Shown piece after piece: positions 11,405 through 44,102 of a DNA stretch of 64,000 nt (the first letter of the stretch is position 1; each line of letters starts with the position of its first letter). The notes under the pieces were generated by a model, which was not told where the DNA came from, searched no databases, and was given only the letters and a program-made list of their open reading frames with translations. This stretch comes from Antedon mediterranea (lineage: Eukaryota > Animalia > Echinodermata). The DNA lies in the NCBI RefSeq assembly GCF_964355755.1, contig NC_092673.1, forward strand, positions 16,737,648 through 16,801,647, written 5' to 3'. The position numbers were made by a program, and so were the translations under genes.

Positions 11405-12331
11405 CGCCCGTATTCTTAAACTGGACTTTAGTCGTAGTTCGAGCTAAAACTAAAAAAATGACGTCATTTTAATTCATAAACCGAACTTCAACTAAATCGC
11501 CGACTAATTCAGGCTAACCTCGACTAAATCGAGACGGATTTTGATCGATTTTTTTAGTCCTGAAGGAGGCAGGCTAAATGGTCGACTAAATGGTTTTTAA
11601 ACGATGTTTATAAAAAACGTAACAGTCATTGAGTTGTTATATTGGCCAGATATTGAAGAATGAAATATCTATATTTATATTAGCTTAATTAAATATACAT
11701 TGGTATAAGTTATAATAATGAAAATAATCTTTATTTAGAACTGTATACAAATTACATTATTTTCTTCGCGCAAGTCCGACTTGAGCTACGTCACGCCATA
11801 GCGACAATGGGAGATGCGGCAATTCACCACGCGATGGAATGTTTAGGGGGCCTAGCGCTTTCTTGTCACGCTATGAAGTGCGTGGTTCGTCGCGATCATA
11901 CTTTGTTGGGGGCCTAGAAAATATAAAAGTTACCGTACCGCCGTGGTTCCTAAATATATTTTGAAGATTTTATTTGTTGTTAATCAAATATACTTCACTG
12001 TTAAATTAATACTGATCTTGTTCTTATAATTAACGATTAAAATTATTTTTCATGTATATAGTCCTGATGCGTAAAAAGTGTTGTAAGAAATGGAAAGTGA
12101 TATCAATGCGCAAAATTTCGTCTGCTCCTCAAATACTCTCTTGTCATTGGCCAATGTATAGCCTTTGTTACCCAGACGTGTGCAACTCGACTAAAAGCTC
12201 GACTTCATTAAGTCGAACTGCAAACTTCGACTACTTCGTTTTTTAATCGAATTTGAAGTAATAGCTCGAACTACGACTTTTTCAAGTCGAACTTCGAACT
12301 ACGACTAAAGTCCGGTTTAAGAATACGGGCG
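11405..12331. mobile_element. PIF/Harbinger-like MITE, complete
   Basis: ~37-bp TIRs CGCCCGTATTCTTAAAC(T/C)GGACTTTAGTCGTAGTTCG; TTA on both sides. Confidence 0.85.
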
Positions 12332-17826: not shown

Positions 17827-18227
17827 ATGGAAAGGTACGTTTTTAACAATTATTTCAAACAAAAATAACCAGCTCCAATATGTGTTGATATTATTGAAAT
17901 ATGTAACTATTAAAAACAAATTAAAATGTTTGAATAGTTATATTGACATACTTTATAATCAGAATTTATAGTTCAAACAAAAAGAAAACACTTTGATTTT
18001 AAGATATTCTTTTGAGAAAAATACTTCAAAATTCTTAAAAGATTATAAAATCCAAAATTATTTCTAATAATTTCCATCAATCATTCTCAATAAATACACG
18101 GGTATAAATGGATTATTTCTTACATTTTGACAGGAAACTTTTGGAAGAAGCTTGGTCAAGGAATGATTTGAAAACAATTAAACAAATCTGTAAGACGCAA
18201 CCAGGTCTTCTGAAATCTATCAATAAG
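17827..18227 (+). CDS. Start exon and ankyrin N-capping repeat (MERKLLEEAWSRNDLKTIKQICKTQPGLLKSINK)
   Basis: ATGGAAAG|gtacgt (17827-17834) joins cag|GAAACTT (18134). The exon ends AATAAG|gtataa in phase 0 like the repeat exons. The helix-turn-helix pattern KLLEEA..NDL..IKQI resembles ankyrin N-caps. Confidence 0.75.
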
Positions 18228-21200
18228 GTATAAAAACAGATATATTTTTATAATATTATCAAAGAAGAAATTCTTTTCATTAAAGTTTAAAATTATAGAG
18301 GATGTAATTTTATTTAATAGTTTAAAGCTTTTTTACTTAATGAATTACAATTCTTTTGCATTATCACACTGATGATGGAGGTATAACCTGCATATACTGA
18401 TTAACCACATTAGGCTAAAAATAATAATATAAATACACACTGATGATGGAGGTATAACCTGCATGTACTGATTAACCACATTAGGCTAAAAATAATAATA
18501 TAAATACACACTGATGATGGAGGTATAACCTGCATATACTGATTAACCACATTATACACACTGATGATGGAGGTATAAACCTGCATGTACTGATTAACCA
18601 CATTAGGCTAAAAATAATAATATAAATACACACTGATGATGGAGGTATAACCTGCATGTACTGATTAACCACATTAGGCTAAAAATAATAATATAAATAC
18701 ACACTGATGATAGGGGTATAACCTGCATGCACTGATTAACCACATTAGGCTAAAAATAATAATATAAATACACACTGATGGGTATGGCAAGCCTCAGCTG
18801 TCTGGAGTATTCGAAATATTATATTATTAATAATGTGGTAAACCATTCTATTTTGTTCTACTCATGTATTAATAATGATAATTATGATTATTTACCACAA
18901 TATTTAGCAGCAATTGTTGTTGTTTGTATTGACAAAAAACAAACAATTTCACATAATGTCTGTTGTCAGTATTTATAAACTTCATTATGATTCCTTTCCA
19001 GTTTGGTGACCCTCCATTACATTCATATCTGAGGGATCGTGGATATACTGCACCTACCTTAGAAATAGTGACTTGTCTCATTCAGCATGGGGCACCAGTA
19101 GCATTGCAAAATAAGGTAAATGTACAGGGATTTGCTAGTGTAGTAGGCTAACATTCTATAGATATGCTGTGGTAAACCATTCTATTTTGTTCTACTCATT
19201 TATTAATAATGATAATTATGATTATTTACCATAATATTTAGTAGCAATTGTTGTTGTTTGTATTGACAAAAAAAACAAACAATTTCACATAATGTCTGTT
19301 GTCAGTATTTATAAACTTTATTGTGATTCCTTTCCAGGATGGTGACACTCCATTACATTCATATCTGAGGGATCGTGTATATACTGCACCTACCTTAGAA
19401 ATAGTGACGTGTCTCATTCAGCATGGGGCACCAGTAGCATTGCAAAATAAGGTAATGTACAGGGATTTGCTAGTGTAATAGGCTAACATTCTATAGATAT
19501 GATGTGGTAAACCATCCTATTTTGTTCTACTCATTTATTAATAATGATAATTATGATTATTTACCACAATATTTAGTAGCAATTGTTGTTGTTTGTATTG
19601 AAAAAAAAAACAAACAATTTTACATAATGTCTGTTGTCAGTATTTATAAACTTTATTATGATTCCTTTCCAGTATGGTAACACTCCATCACATTCATATC
19701 TGAGGCATGGACACTCTACCTCAGAAATAGTGACGTGTCTCATTCAGCATGGGGCACCAGTAGCATTGCAAAATAAGGTAATGTACAGGGATTTGCTAGT
19801 GTAATAGGCTAACATTCTATAGATATGATGTGGTAAACCATTCTATTTTGTTCTACTCATTTATTAATAATGATAATTATGATTATTTACCACAATATTT
19901 AGTAGCAATTGTTGTTGTTTGTATTGAAAAAAAAAACAAACAATTTTACATAATGTTTGTTGTCAGTATTTATAAACTTTATTGTGATTCCTTTCCAGCG
20001 TGGTGACACTCTATTACATTTACATCTGTTGAGTGTATATACACCTACCTTAGAAATAGTGACTTGTCTCATTCAGCATGGGACACCAGTAGCATTGCAA
20101 AATAAGGTAAATGTGCAGGGATTTGCTAGTGTAATAGGCTAACATTCTATAGATATGCTGTGGTAAACCATTCTATTTTGTTCTACTCATTTATTAATAA
20201 TGATAATTTGATTATTTACCACAATATTTAGCAGCAATTGTTGTTGTTTGTATTGACCAAAAAAAACAAACAATTTCACATAATGTCTGTTGTCAGTATT
20301 TATAAACTTTATTATGATTCCTTTCCAGGATGGTAACACTCCATTACATTCATATCTGGGGAGTGTACATAAACCTACCTTAGAAATGGTGACTTGTCTC
20401 ATTCAGCATGGGGCACCATTAGCATTGCAAAATAAGGTAATGTACAGGGATTTGCTAGTGTAATAGGCTAACATTCTATAGATATGATGTGGTAAACCAT
20501 TCTATTTTGTTCTACTCATTTATTAATAATGATAATTATGATTATTTATCACAATATTTAGCAGCAATTGTTGTTGTTTGTATTGAAAAAAAAAACAAAC
20601 AATTTCACATAATGTCTGTTGTCAGTATTTATAAACTTCATTATGATTCCTTTCCAGCGTGGTGACACTCCATTACATTCATATATGAGGAATGGATATC
20701 CACTTACCTTAGAAATAGTGACGTGTCTCATTCAGCATGGGGCACCAGTAGCATTGCAAAATAAGGTAATGTACAGGGATTTGCTAGTGTAGTAGGCTAA
20801 CATTCTATAGATATGCTGTGGTAAACCATTCTATTTTGTTCTACTCATTTATTAATAATGATAATTATGATTATTTACCACAATATTTAGCAGCAATTGT
20901 TGTTGTTTGTATTGAAAAAAAAAACAACCAATTTCACATAATGTTTGTTGTCAGTATTTATAAACTCCATTATGATTCCTTTCCAGTATGGTGACACTCC
21001 ATTACATATTTATCTGAGGAATGAACTTACTAGACCTACCTTAGAAATAGTGACTTGTCTCATTCAGCATGGGATACCAGTAGCATTGCAAAATAAGGTA
21101 AATGTGCAGGGATTTGCTAGTGTAATAGGCTAACATTCTATAGATATGCTGTGGTAAACCATTCTATTTTGTTCTACTCATTTATTAATAATGATAATTA

Positions 21201-24200
21201 TGATTATTTACCACAATATTTAGTAGCAATTGTTGTTGTTTGTATTGAAAAAAAAACAAACAATTTTACATAATGTCTGTTGTCAGTATTTATAAACTTT
21301 ATTGTGATTCCTTTCCAGTATGGTTACACTCCATTACATTCATATCTGGGGAGTGGATTTAAACCTACCTTAGAAATAGTGACGTGTCTCATTCAGCATG
21401 GGGCACCAGTAGCATTGCAAAATAAGGTAAATGTACAAGGATTTGCTAGTGTAATAGGCTAACATTCTATAGATATGCTGTGGTAAACCATTCTATTTTG
21501 TTCTACTCATTTATTAATAATGATAATTATGATTATTTACCACAATATTTAGTAGCAATTGTTGTTGTTTGTATTAACAAAAAAACAAACAATTTCACAT
21601 AATGTCTGTTGTCAGTATTTATAAACTTTATTATGATTCCTTTCCAGAATGGTGACACTCTATTACATTCATATCTGTTGAATGTACGTACACCTACCTT
21701 AGAAATAGTGACTTGTCTCATTCAGCATGGGGCACCAGTAGCATTGCAAAATAAGGTAATGTACAGGGATTTGCTAGTGTAATAGGCTAACATTCTATAG
21801 ATATGCTGTGGTAAACCATTCTATTTTGTTCTACTCATTTATTAATAATGATAATTATGATTATTTACCACAATATTTAGCAGCAATTGTTGTTGTTTGT
21901 ATTAACAAAAAACAAACAATTTCACATAATGTCTGTTGTCAGTATTTATAAACTTCATTATGATTCCTTTCCAGGATGGTGACACTCCATTACATTCATA
22001 TCTGAGGAGAGGAGACCCTACCTTAGAAATAGTGACGTGTCTCATTGAGCATGGGACACCAGTAGCATTGCAAAATAAGGTAATGTACAGGGATTTGCTA
22101 GTGTAATAGGCTAACATTCTATAGATATGATGTGGTAAACCATTCTATTTTGTTCTACTCATTTATTAATAATGATAATTATGATTATTTACCACAATAT
22201 TTAGCAGCAATTGTTGTTGTTTGTATTAACAAAAAACAACAATTTCACATAATGTCTGTTGTCAGTATTTATAAACTTCATTATGATTCCTTTCCAGTTT
22301 GGTGACACTCCATTACATTCATATCTGAGGGGAGGAGACCCTACCTTAGAAATAGTGACGTGTCTCATTGAGCATGGGACACCAGTAGCATTGCAAAATA
22401 AGGTAATGTACAGGGATTTGCTAGTGTAATAGGCTAACATTGTATAGATATGCTGTGGTAAACCATTCTATTTTGTTCTACTCATTTATTAATAATGATA
22501 ATTATGATTATTTACCACAATATTTAGTAGCAATTGTTGTTGTTTGTATTGAAAAAAAACAAACAATTTCACATAATGTCTGTTGTCAGTATTTATAAAC
22601 TTTATTATGATTCCTTTCCAGTCTGGTGACACTCTATTACATTTATATCTGGGGAGTGGATATAGACCTACCTTAGAAATAGTGACTTGTCTCATTCAGC
22701 ATGGGACACCATTAGCATTGCAAAATAAGGTATTGTACAGGGATTTGCTAGTGTAATAGGCTAACATTCTATAGATATGCTGTGGTAAACCATTCTATTT
22801 TGTTCTACTCATTTATTAATAATGATAATTATGATTATTTACCACAATATTTAGTAGCAATTGTTGTTGTTTGTATTAACAAAAAACAAACAATTTTACA
22901 TAATGTCTGTTGTCAGTATTTATAAACTTTATTGTGATTCCTTTCCAGAATGGTAACACTCCATTACATTCATATCTGAGACATAGAGCACCTACCTTAG
23001 AAATAGTGACGTGTCTCATTCAGCAAGGGGAACCAGTAGCATTGCAAAATAAGGTAAATGCACAGGGATTTGCTAGTGTAATAGGCTAACATTCTATTCT
23101 ATTTTGTTCTGGTTTACCACATTATTTAGCAGTAATTTTTACTGTATTGTCTCATATTATGGCATATCTGCAGCATTGCAAAATAGGGTAATGTAGGCTT
23201 ACAAAGAATTGTCAGGACAATTTCACATTTTATTGTTATCAGTATTTATAAACTTCAACTTCAGTATCAATTAGCCTCCATATTAATCAATAGTATTACT
23301 ACCTCAAAGAGTAGTATTATTTAATCAGACTTACAGATATAGAATTCTCAAGTGTTTGATTTTTTTCACATTTTTCTCTTTTTACACAAAGCACATTCTA
23401 ACAAGTTTGTTTTGATTTAGATATTCATTTATAAGTCAACTATAATTGTAATGTGTTGTTGTTGTTTTAATATTTCATTTGTATCTGGATAGTATCCAAA
23501 TATTATTTTCTTTGAAAGTTTATAGTAAAACTATTTGTTGTTTTATATTATGGCTCAAACATTTTAACACATTTACCTACTGTTCCAAAGTAAACTTTTA
23601 TTCAATTTATCTCTCTCTCTCTCTCTCAATGTTGAAGGCGGTAGACTATAAACAGCAGCGCTTAAGTTTTGGTTTGGATACAGGAGTTATAGGTGGCGCA
23701 CTGTACAAGTTGATGTCATTTATTGGCAAATAGTAATTTCTATTCACGTCCTAATTTACAACCAATGTTAAAAAATAGTAAATCTACGTGTTATCACATG
23801 ATGCTCTTTCATCCAATCTCTAGATGGTAAATGTTTGAGCCATGACTGTATGTATGTGATGCGTATTAAAGTGTGTTATATTGTATATCAATAATTTCTC
23901 AAAAACTACTAAGTAACTACACCCATTTTTTAATAGGATGGAAATACACCTGTCTCTGTTTTAGAAAGTAACAGGTGGATAGGGTACCAGAGAAAAACTG
24001 AAATTTTAAACTTCTTTAAAAGTAAGTGAAGTTTTAATTATTAAAATTTTGGAATCAACTAGTTTTCATTACAAACGATAAAGATTTGATTTTTTGTCCC
24101 AAATGAAGAAGAATGTCCAGATAAAGAAAATTAACATTTATGATATCATTCACAGGTTCAGATGGCAATAGATTAAATAATCCACTGGGATTGTAGTAAA

Positions 24201-27200
24201 CATGGAAGTTGTGATATGTTGCAAGATGTAAAAACCTTATTTTTTATGATTTGAAAATTGCAAATAAATTAGAAAAATTATTTTGCCATTACGATAAAAA
24301 TACACAAAAATGCAAACTTTAAAATTCCTTTGAATTAACAATATTGAATAAATTTGGCCACACTTTTTTTTTATGGAACGTCATTTTTCACATCAAATCA
24401 ATCTCTTTATTCATCAATACATCAAAACAATTATACATAAACAAATTAAAGATTTGAAGATGAAAGGGACCTCAAAGAAACCCAAAGGGACTTGTGATAA
24501 AAGGACCACTATAAGCTAGTTACAAAAAAAACATACAAAAAATAAATTAATAAAATTAATAAAAATCCTGTATAGACAAATACACGGGATGCGCATTGTT
24601 AAGGAATATTTGAACTTTATTAATTGCATATAAATGTAAATGTAGAATATTTTTTTTTAAATGTAATCTATTATTATTTAAAATATGTATTCGCAATCGA
24701 GGCAAACAATTTACGATAGGAGGAGATAAATATTGAATTTAACAAGGCCATATAGATGTCTGCAGTCGCTTGCTCAAGTTAGTGTTTACCAACCGACCGA
24801 CATAGTGAGTTGTCGAGTGGCGTTGCACGTGACTAAAAATCTAATTTTCTTGTTAATCCCATTTTTTGTTTCCACAATGAATGAATTTTCTTCACATACT
24901 TTAAGCCAGCTTAAGAATTCTATTTCTCTGTATGTAAAATTAAGCATCATACATAATGTATTTTACCTTGGCTCCTACAATTGTATTATCTTGCAACTTC
25001 TTATGCAAATAGGCACAAAATAATAAGTAATATTTGAGCATAAACGCTTAAATAATTGTAAAAGTTGTTATAAATTAATGAGCTTTCAGTAGAGTACTTA
25101 CACACAGAATAATAGAATATTGCATTCATATTTTGTTTCTTTTTCTTCCCAACTTGTTGTTACTTTTTTCTGGAAGCCTAGTCTTAAAGTTTTATACTTA
25201 TAAGGTTTCCTTCCACACATACTATGTTTTATTAATTATTATCTTACATGTTTATATAATTATTATTATATGTATTTTTAATATGTGTGGAGAATATTTA
25301 TTTAATATTTATTGAATATTGCATTTAACGAATTGAATTGAATTGCAAATATTTATCCTTGGCTTGGTGTAGGCCTACTAAAAAAAGGTTGAGAATACAG
25401 AACCAAAACTGATAGTAATGTATGACAAAGTTAAACTTTTATAGTCTAAGGAACTTTCTTAGCCAATACATACAAGATTAAACCATTATAGGTAAGAGTT
25501 AAAAATCTATTTCAAAGACCCATTCCCTACAATTTTCGACGTTTTGTAAAAATAATGCAATATTACTTTAAAAACATTAAACCAGGTTATTCCTTGTCTT
25601 AGATGTACGTTTTATGGTAATTTATGATAAAATGAGAGAAAAAATGCACTACCTAAGTAGCTCGCAGTTTATTTATTATTATAAAGTTTATTAAAATCAT
25701 TAATAAACTTATATTATATATTTGATACTTTCTGATCGTACCAGACGTAGCCATAGCCAGTGGAACAAAGCAATGATTTTTAACCAATAACGAATAATAG
25801 AAATAAAGCAATCAATGTTTAAGGATAGTCTGCCTAATTCTGATCCGACAGCCACGCTGGGTGTGCTGTTTCCAATGCCTAAAATGAATCTTGAAAAACG
25901 TGTCTGTAAATGATCAATTGGTGATAAATTCGAAAAGCCCCATGTCTCACTCCCGTAAATTAAAATTTGTAAAACTTTGTCAAAAATGTGTTTCCATATA
26001 TTCTCTGGTAGGTATTGTGTTTTGCTATTAATTGATTGTAAATAGTATGTACGTTATTTGTTTTTTGACAATTGTGTTCAATTGTGTTATTCCACTGACC
26101 ATTTGAATTGAAAACCACTTCCAAGTAAGTATACGATTTAACAACTTCCATTTTAATGTTTATGTAATACCATTTTTCATATTTTCTTAATTTTTCATCT
26201 TTTTTAAATACCATTATTTTTATTTGTTTACATTTACACTAAGACCCTATGTGTCACAAAATATTTCCAATATAATTATTAAATGTTGTAAGCCTTTACT
26301 GTGTCTGCGAATAGTAATAAATCAGCAGCATTATTAGCAGATAGTTTATAAAGCAATCCCCGAATGGTATTTTTTCGTTATTTTGATTTAGCTAGTAATT
26401 CATAAATATATTAAATAGAGATGATGGCAGGGGTGACCCTTGTTGTATTCCAATTGAACATTCAAATAGGAGCGTTAATAAGTTTCCTATTTTTACATGT
26501 GCTAATAATTGGAAACTAAATAATAATATATATGACGTCATATATATTATTATTTACGCCTATTCTTCTTAATTTTAATAATAGAAAATTATGCTTTATA
26601 CTGTCAAGTGCACGTTTTAGATCAACGAAGCAACAAAATATTCTACCCCTTTTTTTACGTAGATATTTTTTAATTATCCTGTTAAGAATGAAAATATTAT
26701 CTAATGTGCGGAATCCCTTGCGAAAACTTGATTGTTCTTGTTAAATAATGTTATTGTTTTCAGTTAGTTATTCTAGTGTTAAGGATGTTTAAAAATATTT
26801 AAATTAATAACAGTAGTTGTTAACTGTATACATTGTAGTTAAAAATATACATTATTATTTATTATAGTATATTCAGAATGAATGATTGCTTGTACACAGT
26901 CACCCACAAGTGTTTGTAAGGCTTTGTATCACACAGAGCCTTTATATATAACCTTATACCATTGAAAAAAAAAGACTTTTAATATAGTGTTTTTTATGAA
27001 AATATATAATATGTAATATTTTTGTTTTGTGCATTTTTTTAGATTTACCAAGTACTACTGTTGAGCAATTTCAAACACAATTTCAGAAACAGACAAGTGA
27101 CGAACAGAAAACAAAACTTCTTAAGCCAGAGAGTGGTGAGTTTAAGAATAAGACCTGCTGTATGTTTTATGATTGTATCTATATATAATTTAACAGAATT

Positions 27201-30200
27201 GTGATTAAAATGGGATTTCAGTAAAGAGAGAATTAGATGCTAATGTTATTTAAAAAATCATTTCTGAGCGGTACTGTAAAAAGGCGAAAAAGTGTGCAAC
27301 TGATAACAAATAACAAATGGAGAGATTTTATTTATCATAAATAAAACAAACAGTTGATTGTTTCCATTTAAAATACTGTAATAATGGAATGAAGCTAGTT
27401 TGCAGATTTATGTGGCATGCTTGCTTGATTTTTGCTTGATTGTTGATTTTTAGGTTATATGCATTATCATGCGATCACGCGATGTACGCGCGATTTAACG
27501 AAATAACGTTTGTAATCATATCTTCACAAGCATGAATCACTTTTAAACAAAATTTGGTACTCATAAATTTCAGGTCGATGTGGTTATGTTTTCACAGTGC
27601 GCAATCAAACATTACGTGGTCTACGCGCGATTTAACGAAATCACGTTTGTAATCATATCTTCACAAGCATGAATCACTTTTAAACAAAATTTTAAAAATA
27701 ATATAGATCGTCAGAATGCTCGGGAACACGTATTTTTTATTTCATTTTCTTGAAGTGTACAGTATGTATAATATGTATGATTTGTTATGAAATTAAGAGA
27801 ACAAAAGTTGATAAAGTCATCATTAATTGCATTTTAAATTAAAAAAAATTTATTTCGACAATCAAAAAATTATGACATTTTCTTAGGCCGAAATAACAAA
27901 TTTCTTCTTTCAAAATAAAAGTTCATATATTAAAGTTAAAACTATATAGTTTGACAGTGCATCGTTTTTTAACATTTTTAAAGATGTCATCATAGTAAAA
28001 CATTATAATTCATTGCGGTATGTAATAATCTATCTGCGCCAAAGTGGTTACTGCATAGTAAATACATGGAGGAATCTTTCTACAACTTTTAGTCAGTTGT
28101 GTATAGCTCGGTGGTCTGTGCTCGTGTCTATGGCATTTAAGGTACCGAGATCGAGTCTCACATTGGGAAAGGAAATAAGATTTTTTTTTATTATCCATAT
28201 TGTTTGTTCAATTTTATTTTTTAGTGTATAGATTATACACATAATTTATAATGAAATCTATAAAATGTAAGTAATGTCTTTATTATTATGTAACAATGTG
28301 GTTTATGACATTATACGCAGAGGGATCTTTGATCGAATTGTGATACCAGCTATTGTATTCCCGTTAGCAAGATCCTATATATAAATAATTAAAGATTCTG
28401 AGAAAATCAATCAATCAATATATCTTTAAAAATCAATTATCTTTATTTAAATCAGTGATCTTTATTTAAATCAATGCATATAACCTATAATTCGTCATAG
28501 TGACTAATTAAATTCTAGTTTTTTTTAAACTTTATTTACTCCAGATGTTTAAAAAATCTATTAAAATCTTGATTCAATTTTCAGATATTGCTGCACGTGA
28601 ATTAGATTTTCAGAAAGCATACAATGAAGCCTTGAAAGATGGATCCGTCCCAGTCAATCTTGGAATGCTTAAGGTGATTGGACAAGAAGGAGTTGGTAAA
28701 ACATGCCTCATAAATGCATGTCTTGGAAAGATGTAAGTAGTTGGACAGTAAAATTGACATTACAAAATACATGTAGGTACTGCCTAATTATAACAATAAT
28801 AGATAATAGAATTAAATTTTAACATTGTTTTGTAATTTTAAATGAAAAATCATTTTAATTGTTGACTAAATAACTGATTTAAAATGTGTATTTTATAAAT
28901 AAAGACTATTGAAATAGTAACTATACTGGTATCTATAATTAAAAAGAGAAAATTGAATTTTACAGCACTAAAAATGAATGACATTCATTGTTGGTTTCAA
29001 ATTATTATATTATTATTATATGTATCTCAGATTTGAGGAAGAACATAAAGTTACAGATGGCATAGCAGTGATAAGGACTGTAAGCACAACATGGAAAGAG
29101 GCTAAAGCTGATAGTGGTAAACATGAATACAAATTAGCATATTACTCTTCCCATCATCATAGGCTATGTAACAATATTTATCTTTGATCTCATTATCATA
29201 GACACAAACAGGCCCACAATGAAACTGAGATGTAGAATGGAATTCAATAAATGCATACAACTGTAGTATGATACAGCAATTGTTACTCTATGATCCCTTA
29301 ACACACAAGCTATTGTTTGTTGATGTACTGTAATTGTAATTTTACTTTAAATAATCAATCAGTTAAAGTATTGTCACCTATTAATGTATCTGCTGAAATA
29401 ATACGTACAAATGTCTTTTTTCTGTACAGGTAATCCTTCAAAACAGTATACAAAAATCGTCACTGACAAACTGAGAGAAAAGAAACCCAAAGACGTATGT
29501 CAATAATAGTGTAATGAAAACATAAAATGAATAAAGTAGCACCTACAGGACTATTGCAAACCAGACACTTACGCCCATATTCTTAAACCGGACTTTAGTC
29601 GTAGTTCGAGCTAAAACTGAAAAAATGACGTCATATTAATTCATAAACCGAACTTCAACTAAATCACCGACTAAATCAGGCCAACCTCGACTAAATCAAG
29701 ACGGATTTTGATCGATTTTTTTTAGTCCTGGAGGGGGCAGGCTAAATGGTCGACTAAATGGTTTTTAAACGATGTTTATAAAAAACGTAACAGTCATTGA
29801 GTTGTTATATTGGCCAGATATTGAAGAATGAAATATCTATATTTATATTAGCTTAATTAAATATACATTGGTATAAGTTATAATAATGAAAATCATCTTT
29901 ATTTACAACTGTATACAAATTACATTATTTTCTTTGCGCAAGTCCGACTTGAACTATGTCACGCCATAGCGACAATGGGAGATGCGGCAATTCACCACGC
30001 GATGGAATGTTTAGGGGGCCTAGCGCTTTCTTGTCACGCTAGGAAGTGCGTGGTTCGTCGCGATCATACTTTGTTGGAGGCCTAGAAAATATGAAAGTTA
30101 CCGTACCGCCATGGTTCCTAAATATATTTTGAAGATTTTGTTTGTTGTTAATCAAAAGTACTTCACTGTTAAATTAATACTGATCTTGTTCTAATAATTA

Positions 30201-33200: not shown

Positions 33201-36200
33201 TGTAGTCAAAACACTAATTTGCAATTATCTGTTTGCAATTTCTGTCATATTAAGTTTGTGCTGTAGTTATTTGAAACAGATTATTAATTAGATTTTCCAA
33301 TTTAAAGTAACTTTTAATTTTTCTATAAAATTATTAAATTTATGTGATCAGAGTTGGAGGTAAAGCAACCTATCAAGTGTAACAATTATGGTGACATACT
33401 TTTCTACCTCTACTCTGACAACAATGATGACAACAATGATGACGACAATGATGACGACTCGGTGTAACAATGATTATGAAGACTGCAATGATGATAATGA
33501 CAACAATGATGACGACTCGGTGTAACAATGATTATGAAGACTGCAATGATGATAATGACAACAATGATGACGACTCGGTGTAACAATGATTATGAAGACT
33601 GCAATGATGATAATGACAATTACAACAATGATGATAATTAGAACAACTATAACAATATGTTAATGACTTTTACAATGATTAAAATAATGATGCTTGTTTA
33701 CATGTGTTGAGAGTGACCAAATTGTGTTTCCACTACAGATACTGATAGAGCTACTGAAGCTATTCCATTTGATACAGATCAGCAGTTAGATAAAGATGTA
33801 ATCAAGAAACTTGAGGAAAAAAAGGAGGACCCCTTGGAAGAAACATTTAACATCTGGGATCATGGAGGTCAATTAATATACCATGGTATACATCGCGTAA
33901 GTTATAATATATGTATTTGCCTTGAAGTTAATATTATATTGAAATTGTTTAAATACTTTGTACACAGCCAGTTAAAAGAAAATGTCTCTGTCTAACATAA
34001 TGGTATGACCAAGGTTTAATTTGTTCATTCAGTAATCGCAAAATTCTTTCCATGGTACTGCTTTATATAAATTGTTATTACAAATTTTGCCTACGTCAAC
34101 AAAAAAAGTATTTTCAGTAACTGTTTTCAATCATAACTTATTTTAACAGTGTTATATGAATTTGTACTAGAAAAATGCTTTAATAAAAAGATTATCAATA
34201 GTAAATGTATAAACACAGTTTATAAAAAGACAAATAAAATGATACTTATTTATTAAGCTTTAAAGCATATTAATCAAATATTTGAATAAAAACAAATTGT
34301 GTTTTTGCAGATGTTCATGACATTACAAGCACTTTATATTGTAGTGTTCGACCTAAGTGTAGACCTCAATGATCCTGCTGTTTATATTGATTCCAATGGA
34401 GTAAGTAGTTTGCTATATATTTTATGCATTACAAAGAGTTTTATTTCATACCTTCCAAATGAGCTGCATACATTTACATATTTGAAACCTAACCATTTTT
34501 TAAAAAATTTTTGGTTAGAAATCATTTACTTCTTCATTTCATTTTAGTTGAACAAAGATAAAATGTTTTTTAAACTTTTTTTTTTTTTTTTACAGGAAAA
34601 GTGTGAACATCATTGGACCAATCTCCAGTTCATATTATCTTACATCCTGTCAGTTTATTCTCATAGTCGTATTGTGAAAGAAGATGAGGAGAATGAAGTT
34701 AACAAACCAACTATCCTTATTGTGGGTACACATAAGGGTAAGCTTGGTAAGACTGAAAAAGAACAAAATGATGAGGTAATCTATTTCTATAGCTATCTTA
34801 AAAATTACCTAAAAGACATATTACTGCTCTAAAAATATGAAGATACTTTATTAACCAACTTTATATAGGTATATAATAATAACAAAATTTTAAATATTAT
34901 TTTAAATAAATATATATGTATATTACATTTTATAAACTTTTTGCAACCAGGCAAATATCATTTTTGAGAAGGTTCAAGATGTGCTTAGAGGAAAACTGTA
35001 TGAAGAACATATCTATCAATATTTTGCCATTGAAAACAGCCGAGAAACAACAGATAAAAGCTTTAGTGATCTCAAAGAGGTTATTGAAAAGTTTATGGCC
35101 ACTTTAGAAAAAGATGTTCCTTTAAAGTGGATGCGTTTTCGATGTGACCTTCAAGACCTCAGAAGGGAAAAACATTTTTCTTTGTGTCCTTTAGAAGAGG
35201 TAAACTTTATTTTGTAACCACATTAATAATCTTACTTTGAGCATTACAACTGAATTAATAGTTCCATGTTCTGCCACAGTGTATTAATCAGAGGAACTCT
35301 ACACCCAAATGTATAGAAAACTCGGATTTCAAAATCTGAGTTTACTAGTTTCATTCTGACCACTGAAATGGACCGATCCATTATTAATCGGAGGGATTAT
35401 AAAAATACATTATACCTTTTTATAAACATTTCATTGCAGTATTAATGTTATAAGTTAGGATTTGCAAAATTTTATTAATTTAATACATTCGTCTCAAAAG
35501 TACAACAATAAAATAGACATGAGAAACAAACATTGCCACATGGTAAGCTGCAATATTACTCTTTCATATTGAAAAATGGTATATAGTACTGATTAGATTT
35601 CTGTAAAGACAGTCTAATTTGAATGGATATAGAAACAATTTAGGAATGGAGACTTGCATGAGAAAACGGTTTAACATCTATAGTGCTTGCTTCTTCTATA
35701 TTATCTAAACTGAAATACCAAATAAATGTATATCTACCATGTTTTAAAAACTGAATATGATTTCTATTTTAATTATGTTTTTAAAATCTAATATTATAAC
35801 CATTATTTCTAGCTCAAAGTACTGGCAACTAAGAATGGTATTGAAAAAGGACAATCAATCCTTCTTAACTTCCTGTATGATCTTGGTGAAATTGTTTACA
35901 TGCCTGACAACAAATTATTAAGAGATAAAGCAGTGTTAGATCCGATGCAGCTGGTTGAAATTGTTACTGCTTTTGTAACAGTCATTCCACCAAAGTTTCC
36001 AGTAAGTACAGTAGGCCCATGTAATATTTCAAATTGTAAATATGTGTTTGTGGTGTCACTCCTATGCAAGTTCGGTGCAGTTCCTTATTCCATTATTTTT
36101 GATCATAGTACTTAAGAATTCTTTTTTTGGTATAGAAGCCTGCATTTAGGAGACTTGACAAGGGCATATTGGAAGAAAAGTTGTTGCGAAAATTATGGAA

Positions 36201-39200
36201 AGAGCGTAAAGTTGACGAAGGAAAGAATTTTGAGTTCCTTGTGGCACTGATGATTCAATTAGGTTTCATTTGTGAAAAGACGACGACCAGCAGCCAAGAT
36301 GTGGCAAGTACATCTACAGTAGGTTTTATTCAGTTATCTTTTTTAACATGTTATATTTTGTATGCAAGATTGTGTAAAAAATAATTTTTTTGGGATGATA
36401 CATACTTTTTAATTAATTAATTAAATTTTACATAAAATTTCAAAATATTTGTAGAGTTATGACATATTCTGGTTAAACTTTCTGCTGAAGATGTTTTTAA
36501 CATGTACAGGAAATGATTTTCGTTTTCTTATTAAAAGAAATTTAAATGGCATTTTACAAATCAACAATTTCAGGAATGTGTTGGAAAGCGATCATTCTTT
36601 GTGCCACTACGCCTTGCTTTCAAGACATCAAGTGAAGTGAAACCAGTGCCTGATGAATTTCCAGCTATCAGTATCTATTACGACTTTAAGGGATATCTGC
36701 CAGATTTATTGTTTCCATATATGATTATTGATTTCCTCAACAAATTTCAAAAGAAAGGCGATGACCCAATACTCTTGTATAATCATGCTGAACTTTACTT
36801 CAACCAAGATCATCATGTGACCTTATCTCTTGTCAAATTTCTGACTACAGACGAGGAGGATGAAAGAAAGTTCTTGTTAAAGGTACTGTATCATATAATT
36901 TCTTGTGATTAAGTCATTTTAATCTAAAAATAAACTTAAATTCAGATACCAAAACATTACTTTTCTTCTTTTTTCAGGTGACTATTAAAAGAACAAATGT
37001 TCCTAATGAAGCAAGTAATTTAGAACCCTCTTCTGAAGCATGTAAAGAAGTATGTTATTTCATATATCAGTTTTTAAAACTATATGATTTTTTATAGATA
37101 TTTTTGTTGATTTGTTTTTTTTTGTATTTATGACATAGTTTAAAATAACTTAAATATTTAAATTCATGTTTGTGTAGTTTACTTGACGTGTAATATAATT
37201 TGTAATTTTTATTGATATACATTATTAATTGAATATTAAATTGATTATTGACAATTGATTTATAAAAACATTACATCTTAAACAAATAAATGATATAATC
37301 TTAATATTATATAAATTTAAAATACAAACAACTTAAAGTACAGTTATCAAAGCTAGTTTATAAGTGATTTTCACTGAAATGAAATTTTTATATGGTCATG
37401 AATCTTGGCCTCAATGCCTGCAATTAAAACTTTATAAACAATAATGAGGTTTATTGTATGGTGACAAGATTTTGTTACATTTGTGACAAAATATGTAAAA
37501 TGTTGATAGTAGTGATAATTCACCTTATATTTGTATTTTAGGAATTTATTTCAATTATTATTGTTTTATTTTTTCCTTTATAACTATTTTGTATTGTAAA
37601 TGTTTAGTGAACATTTTAAAAATGTGTGCTACATTGTTTATGTGTTAATTGCATGTTTTTGGATATTTACCTTTATATCTTTAGGTTTTGTTAACGATCC
37701 AGAAGTCATTTGCACCTACTAAAGATGGTGGTAGAAGAGGGATTCAATATGAGAGATGCATACTTTGTGGTGTATGTAGTGATACATCAGAAAAGAAACA
37801 CATTCAAAATCTTGGTGATTTCCAGGACGAGAAGTTGCCATGCACCAAAACTGGCACGTATATGAGTATGGATGTTACACGTTACAAGCAGCTATTTGGA
37901 GGTAAGAATAAAAACAGAGACAGACAAGTTCGATTTTATTTCACTGATATATTTACTACTAGTACTACAACCATGTGTATTCGAATTTGGTGTAATGGTT
38001 ATGTAACCAGCCTTTCAGTTGACTAACAATAGAACAGCAACGCCAAAAACAAACGGGTGAATTTGAAAATAATCATCAACAAACTTGTACATTAAATCTA
38101 ATTATGTTTTAAAATTACAATTCACATATTATAACTGTTGCCTCTTGTACAAAAATGAAGTTTTTTGGACAAGTAGTTCTCGAGAAAATGCAATTTTAGT
38201 TTACTCAATACTTTAAGACTGTTCGCTGGCTTTTGAAAACACTAGCAGGTCTGAAAATAATTCTAAAAAGTGGTCCAGAATTGGGACCGTGGTCCGGATT
38301 GCCTCCAAAATTTAATGGAAAGATTTTGGGAAAGATCTTGTAATTACTTTTTGAGTAATCCTGCTAACAAACAAACAGACAGACAGACACACACGATTGA
38401 CTACATATACCTCCTTGGCGGAGGTAAATAATAAAATTTATGTAAACCGATAAAATGTGGGGAAAAACCTAAATATACTAGTACTAGTACTATGATAAGA
38501 GGAATTAATATATCACAGTTAACAGCAGCATTTCACCTAACTCATATTTCATCATATGGCAATACAATTACGTAATGCATATAGCGCTTAACATTTTCAA
38601 AATTGATTTTGGATGAAATTGGAGTACGTTTCAGGCAATTTTAAGCGTTTAAAAAATTGCCATTAGTGCGCAGATTTTTCACAAGCCTTTATTTTAATAA
38701 TTTCATCATATTTTATTCAACTCGAAATTGCGTAATACAAGCACCTCAAAAAGGACAGGCTAGGCACGTGTAAGTTAACAAAATGGTGCAAATATGCCAA
38801 GCTTTATAATTAATATAGGTCGTTTGAATGCTCGGGAACACCCATTTTGCATTTCATTTTCTTAAAGTGTATGTATCATATGTATGATTTATTATGAAAT
38901 TAAGTCATCACTATATTGCATATTAAATTTAAAAAAATTAATTTTGACAATCAAACAAATTATGACATTTTCTTGGGCCGAAATAACAAACTAAACATTA
39001 ACTTTCTTCCGTAAATATACTTTTAGTCAGTTGCATGGCTCGGTGGTCTGTGCTCGTGTCTATGACATTCAAGGTACCGAGATCGAGTTTCACCTTGGGG
39101 ACGAAACGAAATAAGACTTTTTTTATATCCGTATTGTTTGTTCAATTTTATTTCTTAGTGTATAGATTATACACATGATTTATAATGAAATCTAGATAAA

Positions 39201-42200
39201 AAGTAACTTGTATCTTTATTATTATGTAACAAATGTGGTCTATGACATTATACGCAGAGGGATATTGATTGGATTGTGATATTGTACTATCAGAATCATT
39301 ATTGATAATCTATACATTGTTACAACATGCTGCTATTAGCTGTGATATCTTCATTCCTCTTACCAGTAGTAGTACTATCAGAATCATTATTGATAATCTA
39401 TACATTGTTACAACATGCTGCTATTAGCTGTGATATCTTCATTCCTCTTACCTTAAAAAAAGCTATACAAAACAACCTTATTGCTACACATTTTGAAAAT
39501 TGTGTAGCAAAAAATACAATACAAAACTATGTTTCTCGACTTAAAAATCAGTTTGATTAGCAATATTGCTAAACAAAATTGTTAAATGAAAATTTTCCCT
39601 GTCAGTAGTAGTACTATCAGAATCATTATTGATAATCTATACATTGTTACAACATGCTGCTATTAGCTGTAATATCTTCATTCCTCTTACCAGTAGTAGT
39701 ACTATCAGAATCATTATTGATAATCTATACATTGTTACAACATGCTGCTATTAGCTGTGATATCTTCATTCCTCTTACCAGTAGTAGTACTATCAGAATC
39801 ATTATTGATAATCTATACATTGTTATAACATGCTGATATTAGCTGTGATATCTTCATTCCTCTTACCAGTAGTAGTACTATCAGAATCATTATTGATAAT
39901 CTATACATTGTTACAACATGCTGCTATTAGCTGTGATATCTTCATTCCTCTAATACCAGTAGTAGTACTATCAGAATCATTATTGATAATCTATACATTG
40001 TTACAACATGCTGCTATTTAGCTGTGATATCTTCATTCAGTAGTAGTAGTAGTAGTAGTAGAATCATTATTGATAATCTATATATTGTTACAACATGCTG
40101 CTATTAGCTGTGATATCTTCACTCCTCTTACCTGTAGTAGTACTATCAGAATCATTATTGATAATCTATACATTGTTACAACATGCTGATATTAGCTGTG
40201 ATATCTTCATTCCTCTTACCAGTAGTAGTACTAGTAGAATCATTATTGATAATTTCATATTTAGTTAAAATATTAACAATCTATTTGCTAATATCAAGAT
40301 AGTTAAAATTCAAAAAATGTTAATGTTGGAGGTTTAATATTGTAAACCTATTTTATTTGTGTTGGCTGTTTTGTTTGAATCTCATTAGGATGCAACACAA
40401 GAATGTAGGCAAAACAAGTAATTTAACCAATGACAAGTGAATAAGCTCAGATGAGCTGTGCATTGCATCTTGGTATGCATCCATGAGATACTTTGCTAAT
40501 GTTCATGTGATGTGCCCACATATGGACATGATGATGATATGTTTGATACTTTTTATACTTCTCCTGAAAATGACAAACTTAAATATATTTTGGGATACTC
40601 AGATAATTTAATTGATGAAGAGTGTGAAAATATTTTGGATAGTTTTTGTAAAAGATACCTAAAACAAGCATGGCAATTTCGAAATGATTCACTGAATTCC
40701 ATGACTCAATAACTATGTTATCTACATTGCTACATTAAGTAAATTGAAAAAAAAGTGGGGGGGGGGGGGGGAGAGGAGTTGGGGGTTTTTCGTAATAAGC
40801 TGTGTTTATCAGCTGATTTTATTTTATTTTATACACTTTTACTATATCTTGTTTTGTATTCATTGTGTAAAGTAATGATCTACTGTATGTATCGATGTAA
40901 ATTGGGGGGGGGGGGGTAGGATAGGGGTTGATAGTTGCTTTTGCCTTTTTTTACTTTTCTGTTAATTGTTATATTTTATATTGTGAAGGATGCACCTTTG
41001 TGCTAAGTGTGCCACCGATCTAAAGGTGTAATTCCAAATAAATAAATAAATAAATATATGATGTCATATCAATACCATATTTGGGCATATCACTCATATT
41101 TGGGCACATCACACTTTTTTTGTCAGACACGTTTGATAGTGTAAACAGAGTTTTAGTATTAATGCACTACTTTCTTAATGATCAAATCTCAATCATCCAG
41201 TGTAAAAGTGCCATGTATATAAACAAATCCTAACGTACTTTAAACATATACTTCTAATTTTTATCATTTTTAGGCAGTAGTGATGAGGATGAAAGAGAAG
41301 GAACATCACGGAGTCACCAACAAAGTGAAGGTAAGATACTAGTAGATAAAGATAGTGATATTGTGGAACAATATTCCTGATCCTATTAAAAATGCATCCA
41401 CTATCTATTTCAAAACCCATCTTTTTTCTTTGTAATTTCTTTCTGTTTCTTCTCTCAGCGCTTTGGGACAATCTTTTGATTGTGTAAGCGCTTTATAAAT
41501 CGAACAACACACACACACACATAATGATGATGAACAAGATTATAATAATTTTAAATTAAAAAGTTGGTTATAATGATGATGATAATATACTCTCTCTTAA
41601 ATTTATGATCATATTATTATAGCACCAAGAATATAATGTTGATTATTAAGTTTAAAACTAGACTTGAAAGTGATTTGTGCAAACCCAAAAAAAAAATGTT
41701 TGTGAAAATTTGTAATGTTCAAGATTTGTGGTTATTTTGTACATGTTTGAGTTTTTGCGACGATAGCTTTCCATATATGATTGCATCAAATTACGATAGT
41801 ACTGTACTTACACCAAATGTATAATTGTTTATGGTCATCATGGTCTAGATGGCAAAGACAATTAGACTCATGTAACAGATGATCGGGTCTAGGCTAGCCT
41901 ATAGCTAGTAACAGGGGTACCCATTCAGTAATACTAGTACTATACTAGTTTACTACAGTAGTACTAGCAAGGCCTATCCTGCATGGGACACATAGTACTA
42001 TACTAGTTTACTAAAGTAGTACTAGCAAGGCCTATCCTGCATGGGACACATAGTACTATACTAGTTTACTAAAGTAGTACTAGCAAGGCCTATCCTGCAT
42101 GGGACACATAGTACTATACTAGTTTACTACAGTAGTACTAGCAAGGCCTATCCTGCATGGGACACATAGTACTATACTAGTTTACTAAAGTAGTACTAGC

Positions 42201-43872
42201 AAGGCCTATCCTGCATGGGACACATAGTACTATACTAGTTTACTACAGTAGTACTAGCAAGGCCTATCCTGCATGGGACACATAGTACTATACTAGTTTA
42301 CTACAGTAGTAGCAAGGCCTATCCTGCATGGGACACATAGTACTATACTAGTTTACTACAGTAGTACTAGCAAGGCCTATCCTGCATGGGACACATAGTA
42401 CTATATTAGTTTACTACAGTAGTACTAGCAAGGCCTATCCTGCATGGGACACATAGTATCATCACAGACGCATTCAATTCGAACCTGAACTAAATAAATT
42501 AGCATTAACACAAATGCATAAAATCAACAGTTCAATTGAGAAATAGTTTTACAGCAATGCATTAATCTTTGTTGGCAACACATTGGGAAAGCAAAACCAA
42601 GGACATGCCTCTACCCGCCCTTGGCTTACGTACCAGCCGAGCTATGGCTGCCTTCAGCCAACTACTGTCAAGTCCTTAATTTTAATTGTTTAATATACCA
42701 AAACTTGCCACATATAGCCAAGTCTAGAATGACACACATGTGACTGTCAATTTTTCCAGAATTTACAATATCAAGTTTTCCAAAGTTTACAGTAGTTTGA
42801 TATTTCTTATTGAACTTGATCTGAACCTGACATAATTCCACAATATTTTTATTTTGAAATAGTAAAGTGGAGAGAGAACATAACACAAATTTAACATTTA
42901 CCTCAATTACTTTTAAATTTTTTAAATTTTTTTTTGCTTTTATTTTACATTTTGTTGATATTCTATACTTATAATTAAACAAACAAATTATTTTCATTTT
43001 GGAAACAATAATAAAAAATAATAATAAATGTGCTATAATTTTATTTGCAGACAGGAACACAATTGCAGAATCGAAAACTTGCGACAATTTCCAAGATCTA
43101 AAAGCTGGTCTCAGTGGATGCTTTGACGGTGAAAAATACCGTTGGCTAAGATTCCTACTATTTTCTCACTTGAGTGTCAGTGAAATTACAAATCCACAGT
43201 TCAATGGACATAACTTACTCAATGCACTTGAAGACAAAGGTTTCATCTCACCAAGCAATGTTAACTTGCTGTTAGAGATTACAAATACATCTGAAATCCA
43301 ACAGGCCAAAGATCTTGTATCAAAGTATATGACAGACAACAACATTCTGAATAGACATACTGGTAAAGCTAAGTTGTCACATTACAGAAAGCGACTGTTC
43401 AAGGCCCTGAATCAAGTTGACCCAGATGCATTACGTAATGTTACTGCTTACTATAAATTAACAAAATATAGCTTCTCCAATGTATGGGATGCAGTTCTCT
43501 ATCTGGAGATTGATAAACAATTAGTAGATGATTTAGACAAAATAAATCGGTTTGCAGAACGTCTTAGCACAACAGCAAGTAACATACTACTTGGTATGCA
43601 TTTCTACTTTATATTGTATTAAGTTATTTGTAATATTATTGAATCTTTCATTTATAAACAGTTTAAGTAATTATCATATATTATCATATTTATGATGCTA
43701 ATCTACTGAATTTATTACAGTGGAAAATATTGTGTTTTATGAATTTATATTTATTTTTCATAATCTTAAAAAAACAATTACAATTTCCACAATAATCATG
43801 ATAACTGTTATACTAAATTTATTGACACTGTTTTTCATTTGTATAGATCTCTCAGAAGATAAGAAGACTTAA
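17827..43872 (+). CDS. Ankyrin-repeat ROCO protein: ANK (N-cap + 13 repeats + C-cap) - ROC - COR - tandem DED-like; ~1445 aa, 33 coding exons
   Basis: Manual splicing with GT-AG sites and consistent phases. Exons: 17827-17834, 18134-18227, 13 ANK exons (19002-23053), 23937-24021, 27043-27135, 28585-28732, 29031-29116, 29430-29494, 30829-30907, 33739-33896, 34311-34400, 34596-34775, 34951-35199, 35813-36001, 36136-36318, 36574-36882, 36978-37049, 37685-37901, 41274-41330, 43051-43593, 43847-43872. Total 4338 nt, divisible by 3, no internal stop seen. AATAAA at ~43897. Confidence 0.88.
18365..18780. repeat. 71-bp minisatellite between the N-cap exon and the ankyrin array
   Basis: Unit cacactgatgatggaggtataacctgcat(a/g)tactgattaaccacattaggctaaaaataataatataaata. 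Confidence 0.92.
18835..23095 (+). repeat. Tandem array of 13 exon+intron units (~323-336 bp) with near-identical ~220-bp introns
   Basis: The same intron text (gtaatgtacagggatttgctagtgtaataggctaacattctatagatatg...ttcctttccag) recurs 13 times with only scattered SNPs and poly-A length changes. Confidence 0.97.
19002..23053 (+). CDS. Thirteen single-ankyrin-repeat, phase-0 exons
   Basis: Exons 19002-19115, 19338-19451, 19673-19777, 19999-20106, 20329-20436, 20658-20765, 20987-21097, 21319-21426, 21648-21755, 21975-22079, 22298-22402, 22622-22729, 22949-23053. Each lies between ttcctttccag and aataag|gta. Consensus xG(D/N)TPLHSYL-[variable loop]-PTLEIVTCLIQHGAPVALQNK matches the ankyrin GxTPLH...EIV..L...GA..N pattern. 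Confidence 0.93.
23100..23260 (+). pseudogene. Degenerate 14th ankyrin unit at the array edge
   Basis: ttgtctcatattatggcatatctgcagcattgcaaaatagggtaatgta retains the 3' half of the exon and the donor. The acceptor and variable half are missing and the flanking intron is diverged. Confidence 0.7.
23937..24021 (+). CDS. Ankyrin C-capping exon (DGNTPVSVLESNRWIGYQRKTEILNFFK)
   Basis: taatag|GATGGAAATACACCT, phase-0 acceptor. GNTP motif and EIL..F helix; donor gtaagt at 24022. Confidence 0.8.
25600..26790 (-). mobile_element. Degenerate LINE reverse-transcriptase fragment in a ROCO intron
   Basis: Minus-strand motifs CFVDLKRALDS, GIQQGSPLPSSLF, LLFADT and VVKSYTYL, with stops and frameshifts. Confidence 0.75.
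27714..28350 (+). mobile_element. Interspersed repeat with tRNA-like core; second copy 38826-39282
   Basis: Two alignable copies; tagctcggtggtc...gagatcgag resembles degenerate A and B boxes. Confidence 0.55.
28585..35199 (+). CDS. ROC (Ras of complex proteins) GTPase domain exons, running into the start of COR
   Basis: P-loop VIGQEGVGKTCLI (exon 28585-28732), switch I TDGI (29031-29116), switch II IWDHGGQLIYHGIHR (33739-33896), ALYIVVFDLS (34311-34400), G4-like ILIVGTHKG (34596-34775), FAIEN and VPLKW (34951-35199). Confidence 0.9.
29572..30490. mobile_element. Second copy of the same Harbinger-like MITE, right tip truncated, in a ROC intron
   Basis: Near-identical to 11405-12331; preceded by TTA; ends ggtttaagaa. 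A solo TIR fragment also lies at ~16444-16500. Confidence 0.85.
30942..32278 (-). mobile_element. Non-autonomous Helitron-like element
   Basis: On the minus strand it starts TCTATATATA and ends with the GC hairpin gcgagcgaagcgagcg followed by CTAGT. Confidence 0.6.
32280..33190. mobile_element. Unclassified interspersed element; second partial copy at ~5558-6140
   Basis: 32446-33050 matches 5558-6140. Internal gatattgactg / terminal cagtcaatatc inverted motif, a ~105-bp hairpin at 33056-33160, and a tRNA-like A/B-box segment on the minus strand. Confidence 0.6.
33417..33640. repeat. 58-bp repeat built from gat/gac/aat triplets (intronic)
   Basis: Three gactcggtgtaacaatgattatgaagactgcaatgat units. 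Confidence 0.85.
35813..37901 (+). CDS. COR domain exons
   Basis: LLNFLYDLGEIVY...LRDKAVLDPMQLVEI, GILEEKLLRKLW, LM..LG.IC and FFVPLRL match COR-A/COR-B patterns; ends in a Cys cluster (CILCGVC...C). Confidence 0.85.
39283..40250. repeat. 88-bp satellite (intronic)
   Basis: Unit cagtagtagtactatcagaatcattattgataatctatacattgttacaacatgctgctattagctgtgatatcttcattcctcttac. Confidence 0.93.
39453..39602 (-). mobile_element. Truncated inverted copy of the 177-bp MITE in the 88-bp satellite
   Basis: Reverse complement of 9363-9510; one TIR retained (gaaaattttccctgt). Confidence 0.75.
41934..42458. repeat. 58-bp minisatellite, ~9 copies
   Basis: Unit tagtactatactagtttactacagtagtactagcaaggcctatcctgcatgggacaca. 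Confidence 0.93.
43051..43593 (+). CDS. Tandem death-effector-domain-like exon
   Basis: FQDLKAGLS...LRFLLFSHL...LLNALEDKGFISPSNVNLLLEI...DLVSKY followed by LSHYRKRLFKALNQV...VWDAVLYLE. These resemble the DED1/DED2 patterns of caspase-8/FLIP prodomains. Confidence 0.72.
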
Positions 43873-44102
43873 GTCACATACTTAGCACAATGATGCAATA
43901 AACATGGACATTCTATTCATACAAATATTAGACGGCGTTAAAGTGTTGAAAACTGGTACCAGTACAATCTACCTGTTAACTCTTTTATCTGCAAATTGAG
44001 TAGTGATTTGGTTGCGATGTAATGTTAACATGTCATATCTCAATGTACAAAAGCGTAGATGTTTAGAAATTAAAACACACTAGTTATCCAAAAAAAAATA
44101 TC

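Follow-up and report, generated by a model that had tools for sequence, protein, structure and literature searches.

Brown-algal LRR-ROCOs, in which each leucine-rich repeat (LRR) has its own exon, are candidate immune receptors (Zambounis et al., PMC3341825; Teng et al., PMC11378527). ROC-COR GTPases carry CARD, death or TPR domains in Trichoplax, where a lineage expansion has produced 17 or more (PMC4104024, PMC6337361), and ROCOs with LRR, TIR or death domains occur in Aplysia (PMC9334734). AP-GTPases and DED expansions have been placed in marine invertebrate conflict systems, in accounts whose available portions do not describe the architecture reported here (PMC8195603, PMC7159879). Precedents exist both for candidate immune receptors among ROCOs (brown algae) and for ROC-COR joined to CARD, death or TPR domains (Trichoplax and DAPK1). 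An immune role of ROCOs is a standing hypothesis, drawn from brown algae and from LRRK2 and MFHAS1 in inflammation, with an unclear output. Comparisons with published systems here and below refer to the available portions of the papers cited. Here we describe a ROCO gene of the crinoid Antedon mediterranea, located in a 64,000-nt window of contig NC_092673.1 (all coordinates are counted within this window), whose model comprises, from N to C terminus, a cap, 13 ankyrin repeats, a second cap, ROC-COR and a tandem DED. Its closest known system is the brown-algal LRR-ROCO.

The crinoid gene shares with the brown-algal LRR-ROCOs membership of an expanded family, an N-terminal array with one repeat per exon, diversifying selection on the concave face and a kinase-free repeat-ROC-COR organization (PMC3341825, PMC11378527). 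Different from the algal genes as described in those papers, its repeats are ankyrins instead of LRRs, its repeat exons are in phase 0 instead of phase 2, repeat length is variable, the introns are near-identical, a C-terminal tandem DED is present and the host is an animal. A literature search that covered few subscription papers returned no report of this gene, its family, an ANK-ROC-COR-DED architecture or crinoid ROCOs; Figure 2 of PMC11378527, with about forty animal ROCO architectures, and the supplements of that paper may list the architecture. As an animal variant of the repeat-shuffling ROCO receptor kind the gene is new, and it is real and intact. We lean towards the reading that it encodes a cytosolic sensor of non-self: the ankyrins would bind a ligand, ROC-COR would act as a switch and the tandem DED would signal to caspases or adaptors. 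The one-exon-per-repeat array and the expansion of the family, both missed by a first-pass annotation of the same DNA, are the stronger findings.

Diversification of the Ankyrin Array

Thirteen copies (13.0) of a 329-bp unit were identified by Tandem Repeats Finder at 18834–23097, on the + strand like all other features of the gene. Each unit consists of one phase 0-0 ankyrin exon of 105, 108, 111 or 114 nt (the first at 19002–19115, the last at 22949–23053) and an intron of 218–222 nt, and together the units encode amino acids (aa) 35–503. Pfam Ank matched one 38-aa exon at E 0.003 and paralogue P0013, which has the same repeats, at E 7.5e-16. A blastn search with one unit also located the remnant of a decayed 14th unit at 23172–23257, and the window yielded no spare exons, whether inverted or intronic.

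All 13 ankyrin exons retain their frame and splice sites, and all 13 repeats are distinct. Mean divergence is 0.031 (p-distance) among 12 introns and 0.034 at synonymous sites of the exons (pS), and it reaches 0.158 at nonsynonymous sites in the first 10 codons (pN). Codon 1 encodes six residues, using all four bases at its first and second positions with an invariant third base. The loop that follows helix 1 has 5–8 aa and is different in every repeat, and all changes in exon length are in frame.

Positions of a designed-ankyrin library were mapped onto the exons via what we take to be the usual numbering (G4-x-T6-P7-L8-H9). The test sites were preset from that library as positions 2, 3, 5, 10, 13 and 33 (PMC4308713), with position 14 and the length-variable loop excluded from the count. 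These preset binding-face sites carry 13 nonsynonymous alleles on 14.6 sites (0.89), compared with 20 variant alleles on 219 sites (0.09) in the introns (P 4e-8) and 13 nonsynonymous alleles on 55.4 sites (0.23) in the framework (P 9e-4). Amino-acid change is in excess at the predicted binding-face positions. Seven repeats from three paralogues, none of them identical to a repeat of this gene, vary at the same hairpin and loop positions.

The array units are a mosaic. The four-gamete test was failed by 118 of 210 informative site pairs (12 of 13 units), which indicates gene conversion or unequal crossover and makes the above P values approximate. A history of simple stepwise duplication was unsupported, since adjacent units resembled each other no more than distant units did (P 0.29).

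Several observations weigh against selection for recognition at these sites. The framework itself exceeds the intron rate (0.23 vs 0.09, P 0.014), three repeats carry a Pro-to-Leu change in the conserved TPLH motif, two of the six preset positions (2 and 33) are invariant, and random six-position sets match the observed value in 3% of 100,000 draws. The exon is calibrated by just three synonymous alleles, and the P values are optimistic because gene conversion makes the repeats non-independent. The elevated framework change and the TPLH substitutions, together with the many partial paralogue models and a window rich in tandem repeats, would suit neutral or relaxed evolution, in which slippage multiplied a minisatellite-like exon-intron unit, the family evolved by birth and death, and the repeat differences are mutational noise in a gene with little function. 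We consider this very improbable: the variation spares introns and synonymous sites and clusters on few codons, frame and splice sites are kept in every repeat exon, the full frame is intact across 26 kb, and the paralogue repeats vary at the same hairpin and loop positions.

This pattern recalls two known designs. As in DARPin-type libraries, capped and near-identical framework repeats vary at residues of the beta-turn and of helix 1 (PMC4308713, PMC8683736, PMC8229355); unlike DARPins as described there, the crinoid array is natural, has an extra variable loop of 5–8 residues after helix 1 and shows no variation at positions 2 and 33, which adjoin the splice donor. It offers a natural variable-ankyrin scaffold with an additional loop. 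As in fungal NACHT-ANK NLRs, whose repeats are conserved and positively selected, concerted evolution is combined with binding-face diversification of ankyrins (PMC4986451). The same repeat-diversifying design is seen in brown algae (LRR), in fungi (ANK-NLR) and in a deuterostome (ANK-ROCO).

Gene Model and the Ankyrin-ROC Join

The window DNA is AT-rich, intron-rich and of animal type. Thirty-two exons were placed by coordinates, from the ATG at 17827 to the TAA ending at 43872, with all introns GT-AG and a single open frame of 1,426 aa; the annotated protein includes a further 57-nt exon at 41274–41330, which raises the totals to 33 exons and 1,445 aa. That protein, P0001 (an NCBI-annotated Antedon mediterranea protein of 856 aa), equals model residues 590–1445 letter for letter. 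The first-pass annotation had proposed one open spliced frame that joins a capped variable ankyrin solenoid, ROC-COR and two DED-like folds, with no kinase and no LRR. The frame, the caps and repeats, the ROC-COR tandem and the predicted fold of the C-terminal exon all agree with this proposal, and neither a kinase nor an LRR is among the five Pfam family matches on P0001.

Exons 1 and 2 (17827–17834 and 18134–18227) contain the ATG and encode N-terminal capping helices (aa 1–34), and the same N-terminus opens paralogues P0013 and P0015. Downstream of the array, exon 16 (23937–24021; aa 504–532) encodes a degenerate last repeat or C-cap, to which P0014 aligns unbroken, and ends in phase 1. Exon 17 (27043–27135) is a phase 1-1 linker that also lies upstream of ROC in P0009, P0012, P0014, P0016 and P0017. 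The ROC GTPase and the start of COR are encoded by exons 18–25 (28585–35199) and the remainder of COR, with a Cys-rich C-terminal part, by exons 26–30 (35813–37901). Exon 31 (41274–41330) is the 57-nt phase 1-1 linker mentioned above, and the frame is open with or without it. Exon 32 (43051–43593; 543 nt, phase 1-1) encodes the entire tandem DED (aa 1257–1438), and exon 33 (43847–43902) carries the stop codon (43870–43872) and a polyadenylation-signal hexamer at 43897. The module borders of the gene coincide with phase-1 introns (16, 17, 30, 31 and 32). Phase-1 module borders are a classic condition for exon shuffling.

The ankyrin and ROC-COR-DED parts very probably form a single gene, as judged from sequence comparison, because intron phases agree across introns 16 and 17 and because two relatives carry the fusion. 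In the Antedon paralogue P0014 a continuous alignment runs from the last repeats across cap and linker and on into ROC (79% identity over 356 columns), and in Anneissia japonica P0034 one high-scoring segment pair spans model aa 289 to 1166. The ROC-COR-DED join is present in the public annotation (P0001), which lacks the ankyrin half.

Against a single gene stand the start of the annotated protein at aa 590, the existence of ankyrin-only models (P0013 and P0015) and the fact that the ankyrin-ROC join at this locus comes from a predicted gene model. Three of five sequencing runs, compared over 23650–33400, cover the introns, and none of the 15 joints examined (of 334) has GT..AG ends; the runs therefore behave as DNA and are uninformative on splicing. 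Two neighbouring genes, one ankyrin-only (exons 1–16) and one encoding ROC-COR-tandem DED from the internal Met 590, would account for these protein models, and read-through past exon 16 reaches a stop two codons on, followed by polyadenylation hexamers in the AT-rich intron. Such a split nevertheless appears unlikely in view of the matching phases and of the fusion in P0014 and P0034. Met 590 also sits within exon 18, and a start there removes a conserved stretch before the P-loop that paralogues retain.

The annotated start is further weakened by the P0009 and P0017 models, which open with 30 aa matching non-coding intron 16 of this gene (25815–25904); annotation of 5′ ends in the family therefore looks unreliable. 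The matched segment overlaps an antisense open reading frame that resembles a retrotransposon remnant (no Pfam match). P0009 and P0017 probably share intron 16, and unannotated ankyrin arrays may lie upstream of them.

An Expanded Crinoid ROCO Family

Thirty-six relatives of P0001 were identified, including 22 from Antedon, seven from Anneissia, one from Ptychodera and six without a species name. In a family tree of 25 sequences, each covering >300 residues of the G3-COR region, 18 Antedon sequences form one clade (100/100). Within this clade the module upstream of ROC-COR is ANK, a DED pair, a death domain or a kinase, and the downstream module is a tandem DED, a death domain or a hydrophobic tail predicted to be membrane-spanning. 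Paralogue P0025 is a kinase-ROC-COR-death protein. The paralogous loci were seen as annotated proteins, and part of this variety in end modules may be annotation error. Judged from these proteins, the crinoid ROCO family to which the gene belongs has expanded and swapped domains.

ROC-COR GTPase

Pfam identified Roc (E 1.4e-13) and COR-A (E 2.4e-12) on P0001, and the closest solved structures are LRRK2 and prokaryotic Roco proteins (4wnr and 3dpu for the COR part). By the defining ROC-COR tandem, the gene is classed as a ROCO. The ROC domain has a G1 P-loop at aa 595, a switch I Thr and G3, and an acidic insertion separates G2 from G3. The G4 aspartate reads guanine in Ras-like proteins. It is missing in all 20 Antedon sequences with a G4 match and kept in six of seven Anneissia sequences, so normal GTP switching is not assured, which counts against the proposed switch. 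The G4 motif region lies at 34596–34775 (+), and a lineage-wide change of nucleotide handling is possible. G4–G5 is known to vary in ROCOs (PMC6337361).

ROC-COR is described as a GTPase switch that cycles between dimer and monomer through COR-mediated dimers, with GTP tied to monomerisation in the LRRK2 model (PMC6337361). The first-pass annotation had cast ROC-COR as a switch and oligomeriser. On the dimer-monomer model the term switch is the better supported of the two, and a wheel-forming oligomeriser like NACHT does not fit the cycle described in that paper.

Tandem DED Module and Its Relatives

The C-terminal exon is a 100% match to an NCBI uncharacterized protein of Antedon mediterranea, and all 12 matches came from this species. 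Pfam DED matched weakly (E 6.6e-4), in the first half only and under the curated cut-off, and a phmmer search of the exon against PDB gave two chance matches only. AlphaFold2 with a 45-row alignment predicted a fold with a mean predicted local distance difference test (pLDDT) of 95.7 and a predicted template modelling score of 0.89, compared with a pLDDT of 40.4 for the single-sequence fold. With Foldseek, all five matches at E<=0.001 (of 140 at E<=10) were caspase-8 tandem-DED chains, with alignments that span the full length (177–189 columns), template modelling scores of 0.68–0.73, a best E of 2e-4 and a probability of 1.00. A further caspase-8 match at E 1.4e-6 was not relied on, being partly owed to caspase sequences within the alignment. 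In a structure atlas the top matches (0.90–0.92) were DED clusters, the best of which (0.92) has 87 members, most commonly from Echinodermata and half of them annotated as DED. The exon is thus predicted to encode a death fold, namely a tandem DED of two packed death-effector folds.

A full-library search returned 71 relatives of the module (P0044–P0112 among them), of which 35, mainly long ones, were scanned; the NLR and caspase relatives carry no species name. Eight of the 35 contain NACHT (five also LRR), two a caspase domain with catalytic motifs, one TIR and three a kinase. The others include two TRIM-NHL-like proteins, one URGCP GTPase, one TPR-STAND protein and three with ROC or COR, in addition to two apparent chance repeat matches. 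With a profile built from Antedon paralogues only, the NLR modules shown scored E 1e-25 to 2e-44 and the caspase prodomains 2e-17 and 5e-9. In a tree of 34 modules, the module of this gene groups with NLR, URGCP and other ROCO modules (98/95).

Two of these results weigh against the sensor reading. With the independent profile the NACHT relative P0112 reached just E 0.46, and both caspase prodomains share only about 24% identity with the module of this gene and branch apart from it (100/99). The TIR module also branches apart.

The shared fold also allows a different output from the same protein. cFLIP and viral FLIPs have the tandem-DED fold, the crinoid protein has no catalytic effector and its G4 aspartate is missing, all of which would suit a brake or decoy: a tandem DED that caps DED filaments as cFLIP and vFLIP do, or a scaffold that does not switch and serves to guard or titrate host proteins. 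We regard this as improbable, given that FLIP chains rank below caspase-8 in Foldseek, that the closest module relatives head NLRs, large GTPases and TRIM proteins, and that a diversified binding face suits recognition of variable ligands.

The ~170-aa tandem-DED module (P0044–P0112) appears to be a promiscuous adaptor, found with NLRs, caspases, TIR, RIP-like kinases, TRIM-NHL, ZU5 and URGCP-type GTPases. Its adaptor network is probably under-annotated because Pfam detects at most the first half of the module. The DED-NACHT-LRR proteins P0067 and P0111 contain long runs of near-identical LRRs with few variable positions, which suggests from their sequences that a repeat-diversifying regime also operates in these NLRs.

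A Putative Sensor Built on a GTPase

For the favoured reading as a non-self sensor, the following mechanism may be proposed. Unequal crossover and gene conversion would copy and mix exon-intron units, and selection would diversify the residues of the hairpin, helix 1 and the loop between helices 1 and 2. A foreign or altered molecule bound by the ankyrins would then shift the nucleotide and dimer state of ROC-COR, and clustered or freed tandem DEDs could seed a DED filament with a tandem-DED caspase or adaptor, leading to cell death or inflammatory signalling. If true, the protein would work like an NLR yet be built from a GTPase.

The first-pass annotation had likewise seen a sensor, switch and effector that follow NLR logic in reversed order. 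Support for this analogy comes from the diversified binding face and from module relatives that head NACHT-LRR NLRs and caspases; the part that does not carry over is the core, which is no STAND ATPase. Like NLRs and other STAND proteins, the gene combines a repeat sensor, a nucleotide switch and a death-fold adaptor, and the same tandem-DED module heads NACHT-LRR proteins. In its predicted output it resembles the DED-NACHT NLRs of amphioxus, sea urchin and Nematostella (PMC2575513). Unlike NLRs, it has a Ras-like GTPase with COR, a reversed domain order and a putative cycle of dimer and monomer in place of a ring. No NACHT or NB-ARC was identified by Pfam on P0001 or on the 11 exon pieces scanned, and by its domain content the gene is not an NLR.

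Among ROCOs, the crinoid gene resembles DAPK1 and the Trichoplax and Aplysia proteins in joining ROC-COR to death-fold or TIR adaptors and repeats and in its lineage-specific expansion. It differs from DAPK1 in having no N-terminal kinase and in a tandem DED that replaces the C-terminal death domain. It differs from the Trichoplax and Aplysia ROCOs in that a tandem DED takes the place of a death domain or CARD, and exon-per-repeat hypervariable ankyrins do not appear in the available descriptions of those proteins. Lacking a kinase, this animal ROCO combines a selected recognition surface with a predicted death-fold output common to NLRs and caspases; the presence of both in one gene makes the ROCO immune hypothesis directly testable.

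A bolder reading is that such genes constitute a third class of animal intracellular immune receptor, independently built in crinoids on a GTPase core. It would comprise a natural DARPin-like sensor library, diversified by exon skipping (<=8,192 in-frame subsets per gene from 13 phase-0 exons) or by somatic rearrangement across several paralogues, and a tandem-DED code shared with caspases that NLRs use. We hold this to be rather doubtful.

Other Features of the Window

At 57999–58800 (+) lies a large exon whose product matches a TKL-type kinase fold (Pfam E 2e-25), with apparent replacements of the beta-3 lysine, the HRD aspartate and DFG. It is likely a pseudokinase exon that opens a separate downstream gene, as suggested by its sequence and position. 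Its assignment to the present gene as an LRRK-like C-terminal kinase was rejected, since the stop codon, at which P0001 also terminates, and the polyadenylation signal both lie 14 kb before it.

Two 96.6% identical copies of a 925-bp element are located in intron 20 (29568–30490) and upstream of the gene (11401–12323), and a partial copy of exon 20 adjoins the element near 30490. Also upstream, a remnant of a long interspersed nuclear element reverse transcriptase is present at 14389–14898 (-) (zf-RVT, E 3.5e-7). Downstream, the region 47050–52607 contains an inverted duplication (47898–49100 vs 50808–52000, 95%) between arrays of a 60-bp minisatellite, an arrangement that resembles a foldback element.

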